11,023 bases of DNA from the IMG/VR virus record IMGVR_UViG_2531839448_000002, one strand, 5' to 3'. Of this stretch, positions 1-11,023 are shown one piece after another. The notes under the pieces are model-generated. The model did not search any database. It had not been told where the DNA came from and saw nothing but the letters and a program-made list of their open reading frames with translations. The DNA is from a virus. Its lineage: Duplodnaviria; Heunggongvirae; Uroviricota; Caudoviricetes. The stretch's first letter is position 1. Each line of letters begins with the position of its first letter. The translations under genes and the position numbers were made by a program.

Positions 1-974
1 AGGCTGCCAGCGATCCGATGGTGGACGGCATTCTGCTGGATATGGACACACCGGGCGGGATGGTGGCGGGAGCATTTGACTGTGCTGACATCATCGCCCG
101 TGTGCGAGACATAAAACCGGTATGGGCGCTGGCCAACGACATGAACTGCAGTGCAGGTCAGCTGCTTGCCAGCGCCGCCTCCCGGCGTCTGGTCACGCAG
201 ACCGCCCGGACAGGCTCCATCGGCGTCATGATGGCTCACAGTAATTACGGTGCTGCGCTGGAGAAACAGGGCGTGGAAATCACGCTGATTTACAGCGGCA
301 GCCATAAGGTGGATGGCAACCCCTACAGCCATCTACCGGATGATGTCCGGGAAACACTGCAGTCCCGGATGGATGCAACCCGCCGGATGTTTGCACAGAA
401 GGTGTCGGCATATACCGGCCTGTCCGTGCAGGCTGTGCTGGATACCGAGGCTGCAGTGTACAGCGGTCAGGAGGCCATTGATGCCGGACTGGCTGATGAA
501 CTTGTGAACAGTACCGATGCGATCACCGTCATGCGTGATGCACTGGATGCACGTAAATCCCGTCTCTCAGGAGGGCGAATGACCAAAGAGACTCAATCAA
601 CAACTGTTTCAGCCACTGCTTTGCAGGCTGACGTTACTGGCGTAGTGCAAGCGACGGAGGGCGAGAACGCCAGCGCTGCGCAGCCGGACGTGAACGCGCA
701 GATCACCGCAGCGGTTGCGGCAGAAAACAGTCGCATTATGGGGATCCTCAACTGTGAGGAGGCTCACGGACGCGAAGAACAGGCATGCGTGCTGGCCGAA
801 ACCCCCGGTATGACCGTGGAAACGGCCCGCCGTATTCTGGCCGCAGCACCACAGAGTGCACAGGCGCGCAGTGACACTGCGCTGGATCGTCTGATGCAGG
901 GGGCACCGGCACCGCTGGCTGCAGGTAACCCGGCATCTGATGCCGTTAACGATTTGCTGAACACACCAGTGTAA
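1..974 (+). CDS. C: Prohead protease / minor capsid protein C (lambda gpC-like, S49/ClpP-like peptidase), 5'-truncated by the window edge
   Basis: Open frame runs from the window edge (codons in phase from nt 3) to TAA at 972-974. The translation (...VDGILLDMDTPGGMVAGAFDCADIIARVRD...TARTGSIGVMMAHSNYGAALEKQGVEITLIYSGSHKVDGNPY...) is recognisable as the C-terminal two-thirds of lambda gpC. The ATG at 18 is internal, not the true start. Confidence 0.9.
   Translation, partial: AASDPMVDGILLDMDTPGGMVAGAFDCADIIARVRDIKPVWALANDMNCSAGQLLASAASRRLVTQTARTGSIGVMMAHSNYGAALEKQGVEITLIYSGSHKVDGNPYSHLPDDVRETLQSRMDATRRMFAQKVSAYTGLSVQAVLDTEAAVYSGQEAIDAGLADELVNSTDAITVMRDALDARKSRLSGGRMTKETQSTTVSATALQADVTGVVQATEGENASAAQPDVNAQITAAVAAENSRIMGILNCEEAHGREEQACVLAETPGMTVETARRILAAAPQSAQARSDTALDRLMQGAPAPLAAGNPASDAVNDLLNTPV
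579..974 (+). CDS. nu3: Capsid scaffolding protein Nu3, nested in-frame in the 3' end of C
   Basis: Internal ATG at 579 preceded by a strong SD (caGGAGGGcgaATG) gives a 131-aa product (MTKETQSTTVSAT...NDLLNTPV) sharing frame and stop with C, matching the known lambda C/Nu3 nested arrangement and the Nu3 length. Confidence 0.8.
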   Translation: MTKETQSTTVSATALQADVTGVVQATEGENASAAQPDVNAQITAAVAAENSRIMGILNCEEAHGREEQACVLAETPGMTVETARRILAAAPQSAQARSDTALDRLMQGAPAPLAAGNPASDAVNDLLNTPV

Positions 975-983
975 GGGATGTTT

Positions 984-1316
984 ATGACGAGCAAAGAAAC
1001 CTTTACCCATTACCAGCCGCTGGGCAACAGTGACCCGGCTCATACCGCAACCGCGCCCGGCGGGTTGAGTGCGAAAGCGCCTGCAATGACCCCGCTGATG
1101 CTGGACACCTCCACCCGTAAGCTGGTTGCGTGGGATGGCACCACCGACGGTGCTGCCGTTGGCATTCTTGCAGTTGCTGCTGACCAGACCAGCACCACAC
1201 TGACGTTCTACAAGTCCGGCACGTTCCGTTATGAGGATGTGCTCTGGCCGGAGGCTGCCAGCGACGAGACGAAAAAACGGACCGCGTTTGCCGGAACGGC
1301 AATCAGCATCGTTTAA
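984..1316 (+). CDS. D: Head decoration protein D (gpD-like)
   Basis: The 110-aa product [27 protein letters not shown]...AGTAISIV is near-identical to my recollection of lambda gpD. SD aaggg lies 6 nt upstream of the ATG at 984. The ORF-track start at 978 adds two residues (MF) and is probably not used. Confidence 0.93.
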
Positions 1317-1333
1317 CCTGACCCTTCATCACT

Positions 1334-1358
1334 AAAGGCCGCCTGTGCGGCTTTTTTT
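1334..1358 (+). terminator. D-E intercistronic GC hairpin followed by a T-run (terminator-like or RNA-stabilising structure)
   Basis: aaaGGCCGCctgtGCGGCttttttt: a 5-6 bp GC stem with a 4-nt loop followed by seven T, then a second T-run immediately before the E start codon. Confidence 0.45.
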
Positions 1359-1371
1359 ACGGGATTTTTTT

Positions 1372-2397
1372 ATGTCGATGTACACAACCGCCCAGCTGCT
1401 GGCGGCAAATGAGCAGAAATTTAAGTTTGATCCGCTGTTTCTGCGTCTCTTTTTCCGTGAGAGCTATCCCTTCACCACGGAAAAAGTCTATCTCTCACAA
1501 ATTCCTGGACTGGTAAACATGGCGCTGTACGTTTCGCCAATTGTTTCCGGTGAGGTTATCCGTTCCCGTGGCGGCTCCACCTCTGAATTTACGCCGGGTT
1601 ATGTCAAGCCGAAGCATGAGGTGAATCCGCAGATGACCCTGCGTCGCCTGCCGGATGAAGATCCGCAGAATCTGGCGGACCCGGCTTACCGCCGCCGTCG
1701 CATCATCCTGCAGAACATGCGTGACGAAGAGCTGGCCATTGCTCAGGTCGAAGAGATGCAGGCAGTTTCTGCCGTGCTCAAGGGCAAATACACCATGACC
1801 GGTGAAGCCTTCGATCCGGTTGAGGTGGATATGGGCCGCAGTGAGGCGAATAACATCACGCAGTCCGGCGGCACGGAGTGGAGCAAGCGTGACAAGTCCA
1901 CGTATGACCCGACCGACGATATCGAAGCCTACGCGCTGAACGCCAGCGGTGTGGTGAATATCATCGTGTTTGATCCGAAAGGCTGGGCGCTGTTCCGTTC
2001 CTTCAAAGCCGTCAAGGAGAAGCTGGATACCCGTCGCGGCTCTCATTCCGAGCTGGAGACAGCGGTAAAAGACCTGGGCAAAGCGGTGTCCTATAAGGGA
2101 ATGTATGGCGATGTGGCCATCGTCGTGTATTCCGGACAGTACGTGGAAAACGGCGTCAAAAAGAACTTCCTGCCGGACAACACGATGGTGCTGGGGAACA
2201 CTCAGGCTCGCGGTCTGCGCACCTATGGCTGCATTCAGGATGCGGACGCACAGCGCGAAGGCATTAACGCCTCTGCCCGTTACCCGAAAAACTGGGTGAC
2301 TACCGGCGATCCGGCGCGTGAGTTCACCATGATTCAGTCAGCACCGCTGATGCTGCTGGCTGATCCTGATGAGTTCGTGTCCGTTCAACTGGCGTAA
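1372..2397 (+). CDS. E: Major capsid protein E (gpE-like, HK97 fold)
   Basis: The 341-aa product MSMYTTAQLLAANEQKFKFDPLFLRLFFRESYPFTTEKVYLSQIPGLVNMALYVSPIVSGE...DEFVSVQLA matches lambda gpE in sequence and length. The ORF-track start at 1345 reads through the upstream hairpin and T-run and is rejected. Confidence 0.95.
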   Translation: MSMYTTAQLLAANEQKFKFDPLFLRLFFRESYPFTTEKVYLSQIPGLVNMALYVSPIVSGEVIRSRGGSTSEFTPGYVKPKHEVNPQMTLRRLPDEDPQNLADPAYRRRRIILQNMRDEELAIAQVEEMQAVSAVLKGKYTMTGEAFDPVEVDMGRSEANNITQSGGTEWSKRDKSTYDPTDDIEAYALNASGVVNIIVFDPKGWALFRSFKAVKEKLDTRRGSHSELETAVKDLGKAVSYKGMYGDVAIVVYSGQYVENGVKKNFLPDNTMVLGNTQARGLRTYGCIQDADAQREGINASARYPKNWVTTGDPAREFTMIQSAPLMLLADPDEFVSVQLA

Positions 2398-2399
2398 TC

Positions 2400-2420
2400 A
2401 TGGCCCTTCGGGGCCATTTT
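2400..2420 (+). terminator. E-FI intercistronic hairpin with UUCG tetraloop followed by a T-rich tract
   Basis: ATGGCCC-ttcg-GGGCCAT forms a perfect 7-bp stem with a UUCG loop, followed by tttctctct, 3 nt after the E stop codon. Confidence 0.45.
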
Positions 2421-2438
2421 CTCTCTGTGGAGGAGTTC

Positions 2439-2834
2439 ATGACGAAAGATGAACTGATTGCCCGTCTTCAGGTGCTGGGTGAGCAACTGAACCGTGATGT
2501 CAGCCTGACGGGGACGAAAGAAGAACTGGTGCTCCGTGTGGCAGAGCTGGAAGAGGAGCTTGATGACACGGATGACGCTGCCGGTCAGGACACATCTGTC
2601 AGCCCGGAAAATGCGCTGACCGGACATGAAAATGAGGTGGTATCAGCGCAGCCGGATACCGTGATTGATACGGCTGCTCTGGTCACGGTTGTGGCACTGG
2701 TGACGCTGCATACTGATGCACTTCACGCCACGCGGGATGAGCCTGTGGCATTTGTGCTGCCGGGAACGGCGTTTCGTGTCTCTGCCGGTGTGGCAGCCGA
2801 AATGACAGAACATGGCCTGGCCAGAATGCAATAA
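2439..2834 (+). CDS. FI: DNA packaging / head assembly protein FI (gpFI-like)
   Basis: The 132-aa product MTKDELIARLQVLGEQLNRDVSLTGTKEEL...EMTEHGLARMQ resembles lambda gpFI. SD GGAGG lies 6 nt upstream of the ATG at 2439. The upstream in-frame ATG at 2400 sits inside the hairpin. Confidence 0.9.
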   Translation: MTKDELIARLQVLGEQLNRDVSLTGTKEELVLRVAELEEELDDTDDAAGQDTSVSPENALTGHENEVVSAQPDTVIDTAALVTVVALVTLHTDALHATRDEPVAFVLPGTAFRVSAGVAAEMTEHGLARMQ

Positions 2835-2845
2835 CGGGAGGCGCT

Positions 2846-3199
2846 GTGGCTGATTTCGATAACCTGTTCGATGCTGCCATTGCCCGCGCCGATGAAACGA
2901 TACGCGGGTACATGGGAACGTCAGCCACCATGACATCCGGTGAGCAGTCAGGTGCGGTGATACGTGGTGTTTTTGATGACCCTGAAAATATCAGCTATGC
3001 CGGACAGGGCGTGCGCGTTGAAGGCTCCAGCCCGTCCCTGTTTGTCCGGACTGATGATGTGCGGCAGCTGCGGCGTGGAGACACACTGACCATCGGCGAG
3101 GAAAACTTCTGGGTGGACCGGATTTCGCCGGATGATGGCGGAAGCTGTCATCTCTGGCTTGGGCGTGGCGTGCCGCCTGCCGTTAACCGTCGCCGCTGA
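2846..3199 (+). CDS. FII: Head completion / head-tail joining protein FII (gpFII-like), GTG start
   Basis: The 117-aa product (M)ADFDNLFDAAIARADETIRGYMGTSAT...GRGVPPAVNRRR matches lambda gpFII. It starts at GTG 2846, with SD GGGAGG upstream. Confidence 0.9.
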   Translation: MADFDNLFDAAIARADETIRGYMGTSATMTSGEQSGAVIRGVFDDPENISYAGQGVRVEGSSPSLFVRTDDVRQLRRGDTLTIGEENFWVDRISPDDGGSCHLWLGRGVPPAVNRRR

Positions 3200-3210
3200 A
3201 AGGGGGATGT

Positions 3211-3789
3211 ATGGCCATAAAAGGTCTTGAGCAGGCCGTTGAAAACCTCAGCCGTATCAGCAAAACGGCGGTGCCTGGTGCCGCCGCAATGGCCATTAAC
3301 CGCGTTGCGTCATCCGCGATATCGCAGTCGGCGTCACAGGTTGCCCGTGAGACAAAGGTACGCCGGAAACTGGTAAAGGAAAGGGCCAGGCTGAAAAGGG
3401 CCACGGTCAAAAATCCGCAGGCCAGAATCAAAGTTAACCGGGGGGATTTGCCCGTAATAAAGCTGGGTAACGCGCGGGTTGTCCTGTCCCGACGCAGGCG
3501 TCGTAAAAAGGGGCAGCGTTCAGCCCTGAAAGGTGGCGGCAGTGTGCTTGTGGTGGGAAACCGTCGTATTCCCGGCACGTTTATTCAGCAACTGAAAAAC
3601 GGCCGGTGGCATGTTATGCAGCGTGTGGCCGGGAAAAACCGTTACCCCATTGATGTAGTGAAAATCCCGATGGCGGTGCCGCTGACCACGGCGTTTAAAC
3701 AGAATATTGAACGGATACGGCGTGAACGTCTTCCGAAAGAGCTGGGCTATGCGCTGCAGCATCAACTGAGGATGGTAATAAAGCGATGA
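3211..3789 (+). CDS. Z: Tail completion protein Z (gpZ-like)
   Basis: The 192-aa product MAIKGLEQAVENLSRISKTAVPGAAAMAINRV... matches lambda gpZ in sequence, length and position. Its stop overlaps the U start (ATGA). Confidence 0.9.
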   Translation: MAIKGLEQAVENLSRISKTAVPGAAAMAINRVASSAISQSASQVARETKVRRKLVKERARLKRATVKNPQARIKVNRGDLPVIKLGNARVVLSRRRRRKKGQRSALKGGGSVLVVGNRRIPGTFIQQLKNGRWHVMQRVAGKNRYPIDVVKIPMAVPLTTAFKQNIERIRRERLPKELGYALQHQLRMVIKR

Positions 3790-4181
3790 AACATACTGAA
3801 CTCCGTGCAGCCGTACTGGATGCACTGGAGAAGCATGACACCGGGGCGACGTTTTTTGATGGTCGCCCCGCTGTTTTTGATGAGGCGGATTTTCCGGCAG
3901 TTGCCGTTTATCTCACCGGCGCTGAATACACGGGCGAAGAGCTGGACAGCGATACCTGGCAGGCGGAGCTGCATATCGAAGTTTTCCTGCCTGCTCAGGT
4001 GCCGGATTCAGAGCTGGATGCGTGGATGGAGTCCCGGATTTATCCGGTGATGAGCGATATCCCGGCACTGTCAGATTTGATCACCAGTATGGTGGCCAGC
4101 GGCTATGACTACCGGCGCGACGATGATGCGGGCCTGTGGAGTTCAGCCGATCTGACTTATGTCATTACCTATGAAATGTGA
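3786..4181 (+). CDS. U: Tail tube terminator protein U (gpU-like)
   Basis: The 131-aa product MKHTELRAAVLDALEKHDTGATFFDGRPAVFDEADFPAVAVYLTG...LTYVITYEM matches lambda gpU. Stop TGA is at 4179-4181. Confidence 0.92.
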   Translation: MKHTELRAAVLDALEKHDTGATFFDGRPAVFDEADFPAVAVYLTGAEYTGEELDSDTWQAELHIEVFLPAQVPDSELDAWMESRIYPVMSDIPALSDLITSMVASGYDYRRDDDAGLWSSADLTYVITYEM

Positions 4182-4184
4182 GGA

Positions 4185-4193
4185 CGCTATGCC
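4185..4193. repeat. Left copy of the 9-bp IS10 target-site duplication (CGCTATGCC)
   Basis: An identical 9-mer, CGCTATGCC, directly abuts both ends of the IS element (4185-4193 and 5524-5532). It contains the original SD-proximal ATG of V. Confidence 0.85.
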
Positions 4194-4222
4194 CTGATGA
4201 ATCCCCTAATGATTTTTATCAA

Positions 4223-4273
4223 AATCATTAAGTTAAGGTAGATACACATCTTGTCATATGATCAAATGGTTTC
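4223..4273 (+). promoter_or_regulatory. IS10 outside-end regulatory region: putative IHF site and pIN promoter with Dam GATC site
   Basis: AATCATTAAGTTA resembles an IHF consensus at the position expected in IS10 (about bp 30-42). GATC at 4260-4263 falls where the Dam-regulated -10 region of the transposase promoter pIN lies in IS10. Assignments are by position from recalled IS10 organisation, not measured. Confidence 0.4.
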
Positions 4274-4308
4274 GCCAAAAATCAATAATCAGACAACAAA
4301 ATGTGCGA
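4239..4308 (-). ncRNA. Putative IS10 antisense RNA-OUT, complementary to the transposase mRNA 5' end
   Basis: Placed by positional homology only: in IS10, RNA-OUT is transcribed outward from about bp 115 to bp 46 and overlaps the transposase start codon (here ATG 4301). Boundaries are approximate. Confidence 0.4.
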
Positions 4309-5510
4309 ACTCGATATTTTACACGACTCTCTTTACCAATTCTGCCCCGAATTACACTTAAAACGACTCAACAGCTTAACGTTGGCTTGCCACGCCTTAC
4401 TTGACTGTAAAACTCTCACTCTTACCGAACTTGGCCGTAACCTGCCAACCAAAGCGAGAACAAAACATAACATCAAACGAATCGACCGATTGTTAGGTAA
4501 TCGTCACCTCCACAAAGAGCGACTCGCTGTATACCGTTGGCATGCTAGCTTTATCTGTTCGGGCAATACGATGCCCATTGTACTTGTTGACTGGTCTGAT
4601 ATCCGTGAGCAAAAACGGCTTATGGTATTGCGAGCTTCAGTCGCACTACACGGTCGTTCTGTTACTCTTTATGAGAAAGCGTTCCCGCTTTCAGAGCAAT
4701 GTTCAAAGAAAGCTCATGACCAATTTCTAGCCGACCTTGCGAGCATTCTACCGAGTAACACCACACCGCTCATTGTCAGTGATGCTGGCTTTAAAGTGCC
4801 ATGGTATAAATCCGTTGAGAAGCTGGGTTGGTACTGGTTAAGTCGAGTAAGAGGAAAAGTACAATATGCAGACCTAGGAGCGGAAAACTGGAAACCTATC
4901 AGCAACTTACATGATATGTCATCTAGTCACTCAAAGACTTTAGGCTATAAGAGGCTGACTAAAAGCAATCCAATCTCATGCCAAATTCTATTGTATAAAT
5001 CTCGCTCTAAAGGCCGAAAAAATCAGCGCTCGACACGGACTCATTGTCACCACCCGTCACCTAAAATCTACTCAGCGTCGGCAAAGGAGCCATGGATTCT
5101 AGCAACTAACTTACCTGTTGAAATTCGAACACCCAAACAACTTGTTAATATCTATTCGAAGCGAATGCAGATTGAAGAAACCTTACCGAGACTTGAAAAG
5201 TCCTGCCTACGGACTAGGCCTACGCCATAGCCGAACGAGCAGCTCAGAGCGTTTTGATATCATGCTGCTAATCGCCCTGATGCTTCAACTAACATGTTGG
5301 CTTGCGGGCGTTCATGCTCAGAAACAAGGTTGGGACAAGCACTTCCAGGCTAACACAGTCAGAAATCGAAACGTACTCTCAACAGTTCGCTTAGGCATGG
5401 AAGTTTTGCGGCATTCTGGCTACACAATAACAAGGGAAGACTCACTCGTGGCTGCAACCCTGCTTACTCAAAATCTATTCACACATGGTTACGTTTTGGG
5501 GAAATTATGA
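4301..5510 (+). pseudogene. IS10 transposase, frameshifted (disrupted single ORF)
   Basis: The expected continuous ~402-aa ORF is split into 4301-5230 (309 aa, ending ...QIEETLPRLEKSCLRTRPTP) and a +1-phase ORF 5118-5510 (...KPYRDLKSPAYGLGLRHSRTSSSERFDIML...). Both parts read as transposase on either side of about 5181-5190 (ccttaccgag). The element is 1 bp longer than canonical IS10, consistent with a single-base insertion. Confidence 0.8.
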
Positions 5511-5523
5511 GGGGATCTCTCAG

Positions 5524-5532
5524 CGCTATGCC
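5524..5532. repeat. Right copy of the 9-bp IS10 target-site duplication (CGCTATGCC)
   Basis: Identical to 4185-4193. It contains the functional V start codon at 5528. Confidence 0.85.
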
Positions 5533-6268
5533 TGTACCAAATCCTGTAATGCCGGTGAAAGGTGCCGGGACCACCCTGTGGGTTTATAAGGGGAGCGGTG
5601 ACCCTTATGCGAATCCGCTTTCAGACGTTGACTGGTCGCGTCTGGCAAAAGTTAAAGACCTGACGCCCGGCGAACTGACCGCTGAGTCCTATGACGACAG
5701 CTATCTCGATGATGAAGATGCAGACTGGACTGCGACCGGGCAGGGGCAGAAATCTGCCGGAGATACCAGCTTCACGCTGGCGTGGATGCCCGGAGAGCAG
5801 GGGCAGCAGGCGCTGCTGGCGTGGTTTAATGAAGGCGATACCCGTGCCTATAAAATCCGCTTCCCGAACGGCACGGTCGATGTGTTCCGTGGCTGGGTCA
5901 GCAGTATCGGTAAGGCGGTGACGGCGAAGGAAGTGATCACCCGCACGGTGAAAGTCACCAATGTGGGACGTCCGTCGATGGCAGAAGATCGCAGCACGGT
6001 AACAGCGGCAACCGGTATGACCGTGACGCCAGCCAGCGCTTCCGTAGTGAAAGGGAAGAGCACCACGCTGACCGTGGCATTCCAGCCGGAAGGCGCAACC
6101 GACAAGAGCTTCCGTGCGGTGTCAGCGGATAAAACAAAAGCCACCGTGTCGGTCAGTGGTATGACCATCACCGTGAATGGCGTTGCTGCAGGTAAGGTCA
6201 ACATTCCGGTCGTATCCGGTAATGGTGAGTTTGCTGCGGTTGCAGAAATCACCGTCACCGCCAGTTAA
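5528..6268 (+). CDS. V: Major tail tube protein V (gpV-like) with C-terminal Ig-like domain
   Basis: The 246-aa product [36 protein letters not shown]...AEITVTAS matches lambda gpV. The C-terminal ~80 aa ([25 protein letters not shown]...) is the Ig-like (Big_2-type) domain. The ORF-track start at 5507 lies inside IS10 (see findings). Confidence 0.9.
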
Positions 6269-6283
6269 TCCGGAGAGTCAGAG

Positions 6284-6706
6284 ATGTTCCTGAAAACCGA
6301 ATCATTTGAACATAACGGCGTGACCGTCACGCTTTCTGAACTGTCAGCCCTGCAGCGTATTGAGCATCTCGCCCTGATGAAACGGCAGGCAGAACAGGCG
6401 GAGTCAGACAGCAACCGGCAGGTTACTGTGGAAGACGTCATCAGAACCGGTGCTTGTGTGGTGGCGATGTCCCTGTGGCATAACCATCCGAAGAAGACGC
6501 AGATGCCGTCCATGAATGAAGCCGTTAAACAGATTGAGCAGGAAGTGCTTACCACCTGGCCTACAGAGGCAATTTCTCATGCTGAAAACGTGGTGTACCG
6601 GCTGTCCGGTATGTATGAGTTTGTGGTGAATGATGCCCCTGAACAGGCAGAGGACGCTGGGCCTGCAGAGCCTGTTTCTGCGGGAAAGTGTTCGACGGTG
6701 AGCTGA
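6284..6706 (+). CDS. G: Tail assembly chaperone G (gpG-like)
   Basis: The 140-aa product MFLKTESFEHNGVTVTLSELSALQRIEHLALMKRQAEQ... matches lambda gpG. SD GGAGAG lies upstream. Confidence 0.9.
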   Translation: MFLKTESFEHNGVTVTLSELSALQRIEHLALMKRQAEQAESDSNRQVTVEDVIRTGACVVAMSLWHNHPKKTQMPSMNEAVKQIEQEVLTTWPTEAISHAENVVYRLSGMYEFVVNDAPEQAEDAGPAEPVSAGKCSTVS

Positions 6707-7122
6707 GTTTTGCCCTGAAACTGGCGCGCGAGATGGGGCGACCCGACTGGCGTGCCATGCTTGCCGGGATGTCATCCACGGAGTATGCCGACTGGCACCG
6801 CTTTTACAGTACCCATTATTTTCATGATGTTCTGCTGGATATGCACTTTTCCGGGCTGACGTACACCGTGCTCAGCCTGTTTTTCAGCGATCCGGATATG
6901 CATCCGCTGGATTTCAGTCTGCTGAACCGGCGTGAGGCTGACGAAGAGCCTGAAGATGATGTGCTGATGCAGAAAGCGGCAGGGCTTGCCGGAGGCGTTC
7001 GTTTTGGCCCGGACGGGAATGAAGTTATCCCCGCTTCCCCGGATGTGGCGGACATGACGGAGGATGACGTAATGCTGATGACAGTATCAGAAGGGATCGC
7101 AGGAGGAGTCCGGTATGGCTGA
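6284..7122 (+). CDS. GT: Tail assembly chaperone GT, made by -1 programmed ribosomal frameshift from G into T
   Basis: Slippery heptamer G GGA AAG is in the G zero frame at 6682-6688. The -1 frame continues as ORF 6688-7122 (MFDGELSFALKLAREMGRPDWRAMLAGMSS...), which has no SD or independent start context and matches the lambda T segment. Confidence 0.8.
6682..6688 (+). other. -1 programmed ribosomal frameshift slippery site (G GGA AAG) for G/GT
   Basis: The X XXY YYZ heptamer GGGAAAG is in phase with G codons (gcG GGA AAG tgt), 6 codons before the G stop, and the T reading frame opens in the -1 phase. Confidence 0.8.
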
Positions 7123-9694
7123 ACCGGTAGGCGATCTGGTCGTTGATTTAAGTCTGGATGCGGCCAGATTTGACGAGCAGATGGCCAGAGTCAGGCGTCA
7201 TTTTTCCGGTACGGAAACTGATGCGAAAAAAACAGCGGCAGTCGTTGAACAGTCGCTGAGCCGACAGGCGCTGGCTGCACAGAAAGCGGGGATTTCCGTC
7301 GGGCAGTATAAAGCCGCCATGCGTATGCTGCCTGCACAGTTCACCGACGTGGCCACGCAGCTTGCAGGCGGGCAAAGTCCGTGGCTGATCCTGCTGCAAC
7401 AGGGTGGTCAGGTTAAGGACTCCTTCGGCGGGATGATCCCCATGTTCAGGGGGCTTGCCGGTGCGATCACCCTGCCGATGGTGGGGGCCACCTCGCTGGC
7501 GGTGGCGACCGGTGCGCTGGCGTATGCCTGGTATCAGGGCAACTCAACCCTGTCCGATTTCAACAAAAGGCTGGTCCTTTCCGGCAATCAGGCGGGACTG
7601 ACGGCAGATCGTATTCTGGCCCTGTCCAGAGCCGGGCAGGCGGCAGGGCTGACGTTTAACCAGACCAGCGAGTCACTGACGGCGCTGGTGAATGCCGGTG
7701 TGCGTGGTGGTGAGCAGTTTGAGGCGATCAGCCAGAGTGTGGCGCGTTTCTCCTCTGCATCCGGCGTGGAGGTGGACAAGGTCGCTGAAGCCTTCGGGAA
7801 GCTGACCACAGACCCGACGTCGGGACTGACAGCGATGGCACGTCAGTTCCATAACGTGACGGCGGAGCAGATTGCGTATGTTGCTCAGTTGCAGCGTTCC
7901 GGAGATGAAGCCGGGGCATTGCAGGCGGCGAACGAGGCCGCAACGAAAGGGTTTGATGACCAGACCCGCCGCCTGAAAGAGAACATGGGCACGCTGGAGA
8001 CCTGGGCAGACAGGACAGCACGGGCATTCAAATCCATGTGGGATTCGGTGCTGGATATTGGTCGCCCGGACACTGCCCAGGGAATGCTGGAGAAAGCAGA
8101 AAAGGCTTTTGATGAGGCGGACAAAAAATGGCAGTGGTATCAGAGCCGGAGCCACCGGCGCGGTAAAACCTCAGCATTTCTTGCCAATCTCCGGGGAGCA
8201 TGGGAGGACAGAGCGAATGCGCAACTTGGGCTTTCAGCCGCCACGTTGCAGGCCGATCTTGAAAAGGCCAGAGAGATGGCAGCAAAGGACTGGGCCGAGT
8301 CTGAGGCATCACGGCTGAAATATACCGAAGAGGCGCAGAAGGCTTACGAACGCCTGCAGACGCCGCTGGAGAAATATACCGCCCGTCAGGAAGAACTGAA
8401 CAAGGCACTGAAAGACGGGAAAATCCTGCAGGCAGATTACAACACGCTGATGGCGGCGGCGAAAAAGGATTATGAAGCGACGCTGAAAAAGCCGAAACAG
8501 TCCGGCGTGAAAGTGTCTGCGGGCGATCGTCAGGAAGACAGTGCTCATGCTGCCCTGCTGACGCTTCAGGCTGAACTCCGGACGCTGGAGAAGCATGCCG
8601 GAGCAAATGAGAAAATCAGCCAGCAGCGCCGGGATTTGTGGAAGGCGGAGAGTCAGTTCGCGGTACTGGAGGAGGCGGCGCAACGTCGCCAGCTGTCCGC
8701 ACAGGAGAAATCCCTGCTGGCGCATAAAGATGAGACGCTGGAGTACAAACGCCAGCTGGCTGCACTTGGCGACAAGGTTACGTATCAGGAGCGCCTGAAC
8801 GCGCTGGCGCAGCAGGCGGATAAATTCGCACAGCAGCAACGGGCAAAACGGGCCGCCATTGATGCGAAAAGCCGGGGGCTGACTGACCGGCAGGCAGCGC
8901 GGGAAGCCACGGAACAGCGCCTGAAGGAACAGTATGGCGATAATCCGCTGGCGCTGAATAACGTCATGTCAGAGCAGAAAAAGACCTGGGCGGCTGAAGA
9001 CCAGCTTCGCGGGAGCTGGATGGCAGGCCTGACGTCCGGCTGGAGTGAGTGGGAAGAGAGCGCCACGGACAGTATGTCGCAGGTAAAAAGTGCAGCCACG
9101 CAGACCTTTGATGGTATTGCACAGAATATGGCGGCGATGCTGACCGGCAGTGAGCAGAACTGGCGCAGCTTCACCCGTTCCGTGCTGTCCATGATGACAG
9201 AAATTCTGCTTAAGCAGGCAATGGTGGGGATTGTCGGGAGTATCGGCAGCGCCATTGGCGGGGCTGTTGGTGGCGGCGCATCCGCGTCAGGCGGTACAGC
9301 CATTCAGGCCGCTGCGGCGAAATTCCATTTTGCAACCGGAGGATTTACGGGAACCGGCGGCAAATATGAGCCAGCGGGGATTGTTCACCGTGGTGAATTT
9401 GTCTTCACAAAGGAGGCAACCAGCCGGATTGGCGTGGGGAATCTCTACCGGCTGATGCGCGGCTATGCCACCGGTGGTTATGTCGGTACACCGGGCAGTC
9501 TGGCTGACAGCCGATCGCAGGCGTCCGGGACGTTTGAGCAGAATAACCATGTGGTGATTAACAACGACGGCACGAACGGGCAGATAGGTCCGGCTGCTCT
9601 GAAGGCGGTGTATGACATGGCCCGCAAGGGTGCCCGTGATGAAATTCAGACACAGATGCGTGATGGTGGACTGTTCTCCGGAGGTGGACGATGA
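7115..9694 (+). CDS. H: Tail tape measure protein H (gpH-like), 859 aa
   Basis: MAEPVGDLVVDLSLDAARFDEQMARVRRHF... has a long Ala/Gln/Lys-rich predicted helical middle and a Gly-rich C-terminal region (GIVGSIGSAIGGAVGGGASASGGTAIQ...), matching lambda gpH. It overlaps the T stop and the M start (ATGA). Confidence 0.93.
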   Translation: MAEPVGDLVVDLSLDAARFDEQMARVRRHFSGTETDAKKTAAVVEQSLSRQALAAQKAGISVGQYKAAMRMLPAQFTDVATQLAGGQSPWLILLQQGGQVKDSFGGMIPMFRGLAGAITLPMVGATSLAVATGALAYAWYQGNSTLSDFNKRLVLSGNQAGLTADRILALSRAGQAAGLTFNQTSESLTALVNAGVRGGEQFEAISQSVARFSSASGVEVDKVAEAFGKLTTDPTSGLTAMARQFHNVTAEQIAYVAQLQRSGDEAGALQAANEAATKGFDDQTRRLKENMGTLETWADRTARAFKSMWDSVLDIGRPDTAQGMLEKAEKAFDEADKKWQWYQSRSHRRGKTSAFLANLRGAWEDRANAQLGLSAATLQADLEKAREMAAKDWAESEASRLKYTEEAQKAYERLQTPLEKYTARQEELNKALKDGKILQADYNTLMAAAKKDYEATLKKPKQSGVKVSAGDRQEDSAHAALLTLQAELRTLEKHAGANEKISQQRRDLWKAESQFAVLEEAAQRRQLSAQEKSLLAHKDETLEYKRQLAALGDKVTYQERLNALAQQADKFAQQQRAKRAAIDAKSRGLTDRQAAREATEQRLKEQYGDNPLALNNVMSEQKKTWAAEDQLRGSWMAGLTSGWSEWEESATDSMSQVKSAATQTFDGIAQNMAAMLTGSEQNWRSFTRSVLSMMTEILLKQAMVGIVGSIGSAIGGAVGGGASASGGTAIQAAAAKFHFATGGFTGTGGKYEPAGIVHRGEFVFTKEATSRIGVGNLYRLMRGYATGGYVGTPGSLADSRSQASGTFEQNNHVVINNDGTNGQIGPAALKAVYDMARKGARDEIQTQMRDGGLFSGGGR

Positions 9695-10020
9695 AAACCT
9701 TCCGCTGGAAAGTGAAACCCGGTATGGATGTGGCTTCGGCCCCTTCTGTAAGAAAGGTGCGCTTTGGTGATGGCTATTCCCAGCGAGCGCCTGCCGGGCT
9801 GAATGCCAACCTGAAAACGTACAGCGTGACGCTTTCTGTCCCCCGTTGGGAGGCCACGGCGCTGGAGTCGTTTCTGGAAGAGCACGGGGGCTGGAAAGCC
9901 TTTCTGTGGACGCCGCCTTATGAGTGGCGGCAGATAAAGGTGACTTGCGCAAAATGGTCGTCGCGGGTCAGTATGCTGCGTGTTGAGTTCAGCGCAGAGT
10001 TTGAACAGGTGGTGAACTGA
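9691..10020 (+). CDS. M: Minor tail (tail tip) protein M (gpM-like)
   Basis: The 109-aa product MKTFRWKVKPGMDVASAPSVRKVRFGDGYSQRAPAGLNANLKTYSV... matches lambda gpM. Its stop overlaps the L start. Confidence 0.92.
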   Translation: MKTFRWKVKPGMDVASAPSVRKVRFGDGYSQRAPAGLNANLKTYSVTLSVPRWEATALESFLEEHGGWKAFLWTPPYEWRQIKVTCAKWSSRVSMLRVEFSAEFEQVVN

Positions 10021-10718
10021 TGCAGGATATCCGACAGGAAACACTGAATGAATGCACCCGTGCGGAGCAGTCGGCCAGCGTGGTGCTCTGGGAAATCGAC
10101 CTGACAGAGGTCGGTGGAGAACGTTATTTTTTCTGTAATGAGCAGAACGATAAAGGTGAGCCGGTCACCTGGCAGGGGCGACAGTATCAGGCGTATCCCA
10201 TTCAGGGGACGGGATTTGAACTGAACGGCAAAGGCAGTGCTGCCCGTCCGACACTGACGGTTTCTAACCTGCACGGCATGGTCACCGGGATGGCGGAAGA
10301 TCTGCAGAGTCTGGTCGGCGGAACGGTGGTCCGGCGTAAGGTTTACGCCCGTTTTCTGGATGCGGTGAACTTCGTCAACGGAAACAGTGACGCCGATCCG
10401 GAGCAGGAGGTGATCAGCCGCTGGCGCATTGAGCAGTGCAGCGAACTGAGCGCGGTGAGTGCCTCTTTTGTACTGTCCACGCCGACGGAAACGGACGGCG
10501 CTGTTTTTCCGGGACGTATCATGCTGGCCAACACCTGCACCTGGACCTATCGCGGCGATGAGTGCGGTTATCACGGTCCGGCGGTCGCGGATGAATATGA
10601 CCAGCCAACGTTCGATATCACGAAGGATAAATGCAGCAAATGCCTGAGTGGCTGTAAGTTTCGCAATAACGTCGGCAACTTTGGCGGCTTCCTTTCCATT
10701 AACAAACTTTCGCAGTAA
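10020..10718 (+). CDS. L: Minor tail (tail tip) protein L (gpL-like) with C-terminal Cys cluster
   Basis: The 232-aa product MQDIRQETLNECTRAEQSASVVLWEIDLTEVGGERYFFCNEQN... matches lambda gpL. The C-terminal cysteines (CTWTYRGDECGYHG...DKCSKCLSGCKF) fit the Fe-S cluster reported for gpL. Confidence 0.92.
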   Translation: MQDIRQETLNECTRAEQSASVVLWEIDLTEVGGERYFFCNEQNDKGEPVTWQGRQYQAYPIQGTGFELNGKGSAARPTLTVSNLHGMVTGMAEDLQSLVGGTVVRRKVYARFLDAVNFVNGNSDADPEQEVISRWRIEQCSELSAVSASFVLSTPTETDGAVFPGRIMLANTCTWTYRGDECGYHGPAVADEYDQPTFDITKDKCSKCLSGCKFRNNVGNFGGFLSINKLSQ

Positions 10719-10722
10719 TCCC

Positions 10723-11023
10723 ATGACAGAGACAGAATCAGCGATTCTGGCGCACGCCCGGCGATGTGCGCCAGCGGAGTCGTGCGGCTTCGTGGTGAGA
10801 ACGCCGGAGGGGGAAAGATATTTTCCCTGCGTGAATATTTCCGGTGAGCCGGAGGATTATTTCCGGATGGCTCCGGAGGACTGGCTGCAGGCAGAAATGC
10901 AGGGTGAGATTGTGGCGCTGGTCCACAGCCACCCCGGTGGTCTGCCCTGGCTGAGTGAGGCCGACCGGCGGCTGCAGGTGCAGAGTGATTTGCCGTGGTG
11001 GCTGGTCTGCCGGGGGACGATTC
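10723..11023 (+). CDS. K: Tail tip assembly protein K (gpK-like, MPN/JAMM plus NlpC/P60), 3'-truncated by the window edge
   Basis: ATG at 10723 is 4 nt after the L stop. The translation MTETESAILAHARRCAPAESCGFVVRTPEGERYFPCVNISGEPEDYFRMAPEDWLQAEMQGEIVALVHSHPGGLPWLSEADRRLQ... matches the lambda gpK N-terminus, including the HxH...S..D JAMM-type motif. The frame is open to the window end. It is absent from the ORF track because there is no stop in the window. Confidence 0.88.
   Translation, partial: MTETESAILAHARRCAPAESCGFVVRTPEGERYFPCVNISGEPEDYFRMAPEDWLQAEMQGEIVALVHSHPGGLPWLSEADRRLQVQSDLPWWLVCRGTI

Follow-up and report, generated by a model that had tools for sequence, protein, structure and literature searches.

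The window analysed here, a stretch of 11,023 nucleotides (positions 1-11023), is the entire contig AFEB01000013.1 of the 2011 draft assembly GCA_000225245.2 of E. coli TX1999. Its two ends fall within gene C and gene K, and they probably represent an assembly break at sequence that is common to other lambdoid prophages. Family-level matches to PHROG and Pfam give the gene order C/Nu3-D-E-FI-FII-Z-U-V-G-T-H-M-L-K, which is that of a lambda-type late (head-tail) operon, with C/Nu3, D, E, FI, FII, Z, U, V, G, T, H, M and L standing in lambda order. The phage part is collinear with lambda NC_001416 and shares 97.9% identity with phage Kati. An earlier reading made from the letters of the window (the sequence-only reading) had described a lambda-type operon, and this is correct insofar as the operon is lambdoid; the phage is, however, 96–97% identical to lambda and not lambda itself. 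Laboratory lambda or a vector can be ruled out as the source, since this value has to be compared with 100% identity to a prophage of wild porcine ETEC. Every phage ORF in the window is intact and has an identical counterpart in the prophage of ETEC1731. The slippery heptamer GGGAAAG of the programmed G-T frameshift is intact at 6682-6688, and the H protein has 859 aa here versus 853 aa in lambda. The 11-kb contig contains neither Q nor qut nor pR'; the Q type of the TX1999 prophage lies outside the window. A literature search found no paper on TX1999 or on the accession prefix AFEB.

The features on which the following argument depends are, in the order of their position:

3786-4181, plus strand: gene U, tail terminator, intact (PHROG 37, E=2.9e-62; syntenic with lambda U)
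4180-4184, plus strand: native Shine-Dalgarno (SD) sequence of V, GAGGA, now apart from V (direct reading)
4185-4193, no strand: left copy of the target-site duplication CGCTATGCC (direct reading; single copy in lambda, Kati and ETEC1731)
4189-4197, plus strand: two-codon ORF ATG CCC TGA, made of the duplicated V start codon and a stop formed with the IS tip (direct reading)
4194-5523, plus strand: IS10 of the IS10-Left type (NCBI name ISVsa5 family), 1329 bp plus 1 inserted base
4194-4216, no strand: outside-end terminal inverted repeat, 17/23 match to the inside end
4239-4308, minus strand: RNA-OUT antisense RNA gene (Rfam RF00240, full length, 97.3 bits versus a gathering score of 41)
4301-5230, plus strand: transposase ORF, stopping after 309 aa (PF01609 DDE_Tnp_1, E=2.9e-18)
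5185, plus strand: extra A at IS position 992, which causes a frameshift (alignment)
5193-5510, plus strand: out-of-frame remainder of the transposase (C-terminal 107 residues), whose TGA at 5508-5510 overlaps the ATG at 5507
5501-5523, no strand: inside-end terminal inverted repeat with GATC at 5514-5517 (direct reading)
5507-5509, plus strand: ATG at the IS end in frame with V (ORF 5507-6268), with GGGG at 5498-5501
5524-5532, no strand: right copy of the 9-bp duplication, containing the authentic V ATG at 5528-5530 (direct reading)
5528-6268, plus strand: gene V, major tail tube protein, 246 aa (PHROG 41, E=8.5e-126 over the full length)
6284-7122, plus strand: G and G-T tail chaperone genes, the first genes 3' of V that need transcription through the IS

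Direct reading of 3900-5800 upheld all coordinates that the sequence-only reading had given for the insertion. The 1330-bp element runs from CTGATGAATCCCC at 4194 to GGGGATCTCTCAG at 5523 and is flanked by the direct repeat CGCTATGCC, which has no other occurrence in the window; for an exact 9-bp repeat at both tips of an element the chance expectation is about 4e-6. In detail, the element sits in the 7-bp spacer between U, the stop codon of which is the TGA at 4179-4181, and V, and the target consists of the end of this spacer together with the first five bases of V. As had been proposed, the initiation codon of V thus lies inside the duplication, and the native SD sequence is left to serve the two-codon ORF. 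V is now directly preceded by the inside end of IS10 (...TTTTGGGGAAATTATGAGGGGATCTCTCAGCGCTATG). No coding sequence is broken by the insertion, the V coding sequence being intact and 100% identical to that of ETEC1731, with the native SD sequence replaced by IS-end sequence.

The identification of the element as IS10 is borne out by alignment with both Tn10 copies of R100. All 1329 of 1329 bases of IS10-Left of Tn10 (R100, NC_002134, 36132-37460) are identical in the window copy, which differs by a single extra base, while it differs from IS10-Right by 15 substitutions and an indel and has the IS10-Left state at 15/15 of the diagnostic substitutions. The NCBI label 'ISVsa5 family' is given to both IS10-Left and IS10-Right transposases. 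The ISVsa5 copy in E. coli 700462 is also identical to the window IS10 except for the extra A. With IS10-Left of Tn10 the window copy shares the terminal repeats, RNA-OUT, transposase residues 1-294, the 9-bp duplication and the hotspot-like target; unlike it, the window copy is solo, lies outside Tn10 and carries the extra A that truncates the transposase. The terminal inverted repeats are imperfect and comprise about 23 bp (CTGATGAATCCCC... / ...GGGGATCTCTCAG). The outside end is on the left, so that the transposase is oriented the same way as the late operon, and the promoter pOUT and RNA-OUT point towards U, antisense to the operon.

The single long ORF of a 402-aa DDE transposase is interrupted by the +1 frameshift at 5185. 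Residues 1-294 are identical to IS10-Left and retain D97, D161 and E292, whereas residues 295-402 are lost. In none of the 1,606 IS10-carrying records (1,319 complete E. coli genomes) did the best-matching IS10 copy contain the extra A. It may be a private mutation or an uncorrected error of the 2011 draft contig, the latter because polishing is weakest in repeats. By its sequence the window copy is IS10 and, as deposited, it is pseudogenised and non-autonomous; if the extra A is real, it would be mobile only with transposase provided by another copy. IS10-Left is classically the defective copy of Tn10. A search with window 5437-5500 as the probe located the IS10-Left-type 3' end in no fewer than 604 complete E. 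coli genomes, at up to 44 places per genome, which argues that the IS10-Left variant does spread in wild strains.

The uninterrupted site is preserved in several relatives. Lambda NC_001416 and phage Kati are continuous at the U/V junction (...ATGTGAGGACGCTATGCCTGTACC...), each with a single CGCTATGCC. In addition, window 1-4193 and window 5524-11023 are each 100.000% identical, without gaps, to the chromosome of porcine ETEC1731, in which U and V are adjacent, and the two matches overlap by precisely the 9 duplicated bp. Removal of the IS together with one copy of the repeat yields 9,684 bp that are 100% identical to the uninterrupted ETEC1731 prophage (extracted locus 2817-12500). The alignments to lambda and to IS10 thus place the junctions and the 9-bp duplication exactly where the sequence-only reading had put them, and the exact repeat together with the uninterrupted site in lambda, Kati and ETEC1731 establishes its origin from true transposition. 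The IS is also the sole DNA in the window that is absent from the relatives, in agreement with the earlier view of it as the only accessory DNA. By these identities, TX1999 carries the same prophage as a pig-associated lineage. The right flank, where this part was compared, is 100.0% identical in ETEC1747 and CV839-06 too.

Neither the 5,426 complete E. coli genomes nor the 50,697 phage records contained the junction, i.e. no record spans the insertion. Exact 27-29-mers of both junctions had zero matches in GTDB species genomes, that of the left junction had zero matches in IMG/VR viral contigs and that of the right junction zero matches in JGI metagenome contigs. As both the tail module (carried by about 3,680 complete genomes) and IS10 (1,319 genomes) are common and the junction was seen once, the insertion is a private, one-off event. 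That it is also recent is indicated by zero substitutions in 9,684 bp of flank, by the one difference within the IS and by the junction being found in no other searched record.

With regard to target choice, the match to five of the six specified positions of the hotspot consensus is borne out by comparison of CGCTATGCC with GCTNAGC, the site class resembling NGCTNAGCN. The used target fits the known preference of IS10 (Halling and Kleckner 1982, as that work is cited in PMC4574204 and PMC2744996). At least 5/6 agreement with the consensus occurs at 67 of 9,678 positions (0.69%) of the empty phage segment as reconstructed (9,684 bp), two of them with 6/6 and 65 with 5/6. Among these 67 consensus-like sites, only the used one (4185) leaves every ORF intact, and non-disruptive positions make up 2.7% overall. 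The same 9-mer CGCTATGCC flanks an independent IS10-Left-type copy in torZ of E. coli 700462 (extracted locus 301-1647), so that it has been used as a target at least twice, at unrelated loci.

Expression of the genes downstream of the IS was considered at the level of transcription and of translation. On the plus strand of the IS no convincing intrinsic terminator was found, the one weak candidate (4561-4576) representing a count not above that of shuffled sequence. A sigma-70 consensus scan of 3700-6400 returned no promoter, and the same scan also misses pIN, pOUT, pIII and OUTIIp, which are known from the literature. Outward promoters have been reported at both IS10 ends (PMC4574204), and pIII and OUTIIp have been placed at IS nt 1000-1230, reading towards the inside end (PMC11481808); from these two promoters the tail genes might be transcribed weakly and constitutively in the lysogen. 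The lysogen is expected to keep the late operon silent, so that the insertion would be neutral to the host. Once the prophage is induced, Q-modified RNA polymerase would read through the 1.3-kb IS and V-G-T-H-M-L-K mRNA would still be made. Indeed, Q-modified RNA polymerase suppresses polarity, and lambda Q antitermination is a documented polarity suppressor (PMC12360218), so that a loss of V-K transcription is not expected in lytic growth.

Translation of V is a different matter. The native site forms an anti-SD duplex of -5.9 kcal/mol at a near-optimal spacer, which now leads to the ATG at 4189. The authentic V start at 5528 is preceded by the stronger GAGGGG (-8.5 kcal/mol), but at a distance of 13-15 nt, and an SD sequence at 13-15 nt is at or beyond the usual working range. 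The in-frame ATG at 5507, which overlaps the stop codon of the transposase frame (ATGA), is preceded by GGGG with an anti-SD duplex of -5.5 kcal/mol and a spacer of about 5 nt. V would hence start either at its own ATG by means of the too distant GAGGGG or at 5507 by means of the weak GGGG, and initiation at 5507 would add the seven residues MRGSLSA to the N-terminus of the protein. The predicted RNA fold around the new V start is not more stable than that of shuffled sequence (z=+0.87), and in the minimum-energy fold the GGGG is placed in a hairpin stem. The same scan, applied to the published fold-back inhibition of IS10, gave z=-1.12 for the fold at the transposase start on read-through transcripts, which is not significant. 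In the tail tube, gpV is ordered from residue 3 and its N-terminus contributes to the ring-ring contacts, and V is needed at about 192 copies per tail, arranged in 32 hexameric rings (PMC10721106). Given the role of the N-terminus in ring-ring contacts, a seven-residue extension could be harmful.

Taken together, the locus is very probably explained by one recent event, in which an IS10 of the IS10-Left type transposed into a lambdoid prophage carried by E. coli TX1999. Transposase cut the 9-bp target CGCTATGCC and repair duplicated it, and the SD sequence of V stayed on the left side, where it now serves a mini-ORF of Met, Pro and stop. One might suspect instead that a repeat was misassembled or that the junction was engineered or arose in cloning, given that the contig making up the window is short (11 kb) and comes from a 2011 draft assembly, that IS10-Left derives from Tn10, a standard laboratory tool, and that the unusual additional A at 5185 hints at imperfect sequence. 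Neither misassembly nor cloning, however, makes a perfect 9-bp duplication at the exact tips of an IS at a hotspot-like site, vector sequence is absent from the window, the flanks belong to a natural prophage that porcine ETEC isolates carry in identical form, and IS10-Left-type copies are common in wild E. coli, as their number in complete genomes shows; we therefore consider such an artefact hardly credible. It could further be argued that the position of the transposed copy is not a matter of chance, i.e. that selection for viability has filtered the insertions and that the phage stayed transmissible, as the sole ORF-sparing site among the consensus-like ones was hit and non-disruptive positions are scarce throughout. 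The site is nevertheless weak evidence of selection because it concerns a single event that was noticed for looking unusual. In addition, flanks that are fully identical to an IS-free prophage imply that selection has had hardly any time to act, insertions that disrupt late genes would be maintained just as readily because these genes are silent in the lysogen, and the insertion was found in no other genome searched. Selection of this kind appears very unlikely, and the non-disruptive site was probably hit by chance.

The consequences for the phage are less clear-cut than the origin of the insertion. The sequence-only reading had suggested, in guarded terms, that the insertion may make the prophage tail-defective or alter the stoichiometry of the tail genes, which is a reasonable view. 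The severest outcome would be that V synthesis is abolished, induction then resulting in DNA-filled heads without tails. The removal of the native SD sequence from V, the distance of the best substitute for the ATG at 5528 and the large number of V copies that each tail requires all point in this direction, as does the gene caller used on the record, which could not place the V start and began at Met8. Against this, an SD-like GGGG stands about 5 nt ahead of the in-frame ATG at 5507, with a duplex energy close to the native one, and transcription should go on under Q antitermination (PMC12360218), so that we regard a complete loss of V as rather unlikely. As judged from these sequence elements, translation of V is probably altered and not abolished, and on balance we would expect less or altered V to lead to a lower yield of good tails; that the phage is affected to no measurable extent seems improbable. 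A more far-reaching proposal is that the inside end of IS10 acts as a substitute translation-initiation region, its GGGG and ATG being fused to V by an accident of reading frame, that tails are built from V extended by MRGSLSA and that the insertion has endured because it hit the one consensus-like site at which the coding sequences of the late operon stay intact. We hold this to be doubtful; if true, it would be a natural case in which an essential structural gene with very high expression obtains its start site from an IS.

The deposited gene call for V starts at the eighth codon (Met8, 239 aa; 5549-6268) and not at 5528. The shifted start stems from the effect of the IS on annotation and has entered the protein databases as EGX25091.1.

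The left junction recalls another feature of lambda, the bar minigenes, which are two-codon ORFs of the form AUG AUA stop. They are toxic in hosts deficient in peptidyl-tRNA hydrolase, in a codon-dependent manner. The AUG CCC UGA of the left junction stands behind a good SD sequence on a very abundant late transcript; nothing suggests, however, that this mini-ORF has an effect.

Textbooks have covered IS10, together with its target preference and polarity effects, since the 1980s. The IS10-Left copy, the 9-bp duplication, the hotspot preference and the separation of a gene from its signals are all of known kinds, and the insertion is in this sense an ordinary event that opens no new question. 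Beyond what the sequence-only reading had recognised, our analysis adds the IS10-Left type, the frameshifted transposase, the in-frame start carried by the IS and the argument from Q on polarity, as well as the source strain and its IS-free twin prophage. The locus is one more case of insertion sequences eroding or modifying prophages, and TX1999 (with the IS) and ETEC1731 (without it, and identical over the 9.7 kb compared) constitute a clean natural pair. Comparison of the two could reveal to what degree a 20-kb late operon is shielded from an inserted IS by Q antitermination, how much weight the ribosome-binding site of V has in tail yield and to what extent an N-terminal extension of gpV is tolerated.

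Comparable insertions have been described between the cat promoter and the cat ORF in vectors of the pSU8 family (PMC4574204) and upstream of otsBA (PMC2744996). As in TX1999, IS10 splits the gene from its upstream signals in both cases, is flanked by a 9-bp duplication and leaves the ORF intact, and in both cases gene expression was changed by IS10 (PMC4574204, PMC2744996). There, the outside end with pOUT faces the gene and activates it under selection. In TX1999, unlike in these cases, the inside end faces V and pOUT points away, there is no sign of selection, and the displaced signal is the ribosome-binding site, not the promoter.

A further parallel is found in the Escherichia phage PhiR70_1 (PV340577), a deposited phage genome in which IS4 (InsG) lies between E and FI (extracted locus 2498-3826). 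It resembles the TX1999 locus in that the IS occupies an intercistronic gap of a lambdoid late operon and is oriented with the operon, whereas the IS and the gap are different ones. A literature search found no paper on PhiR70_1 or on its viability. The H gene of PhiR70_1 is annotated in two pieces.
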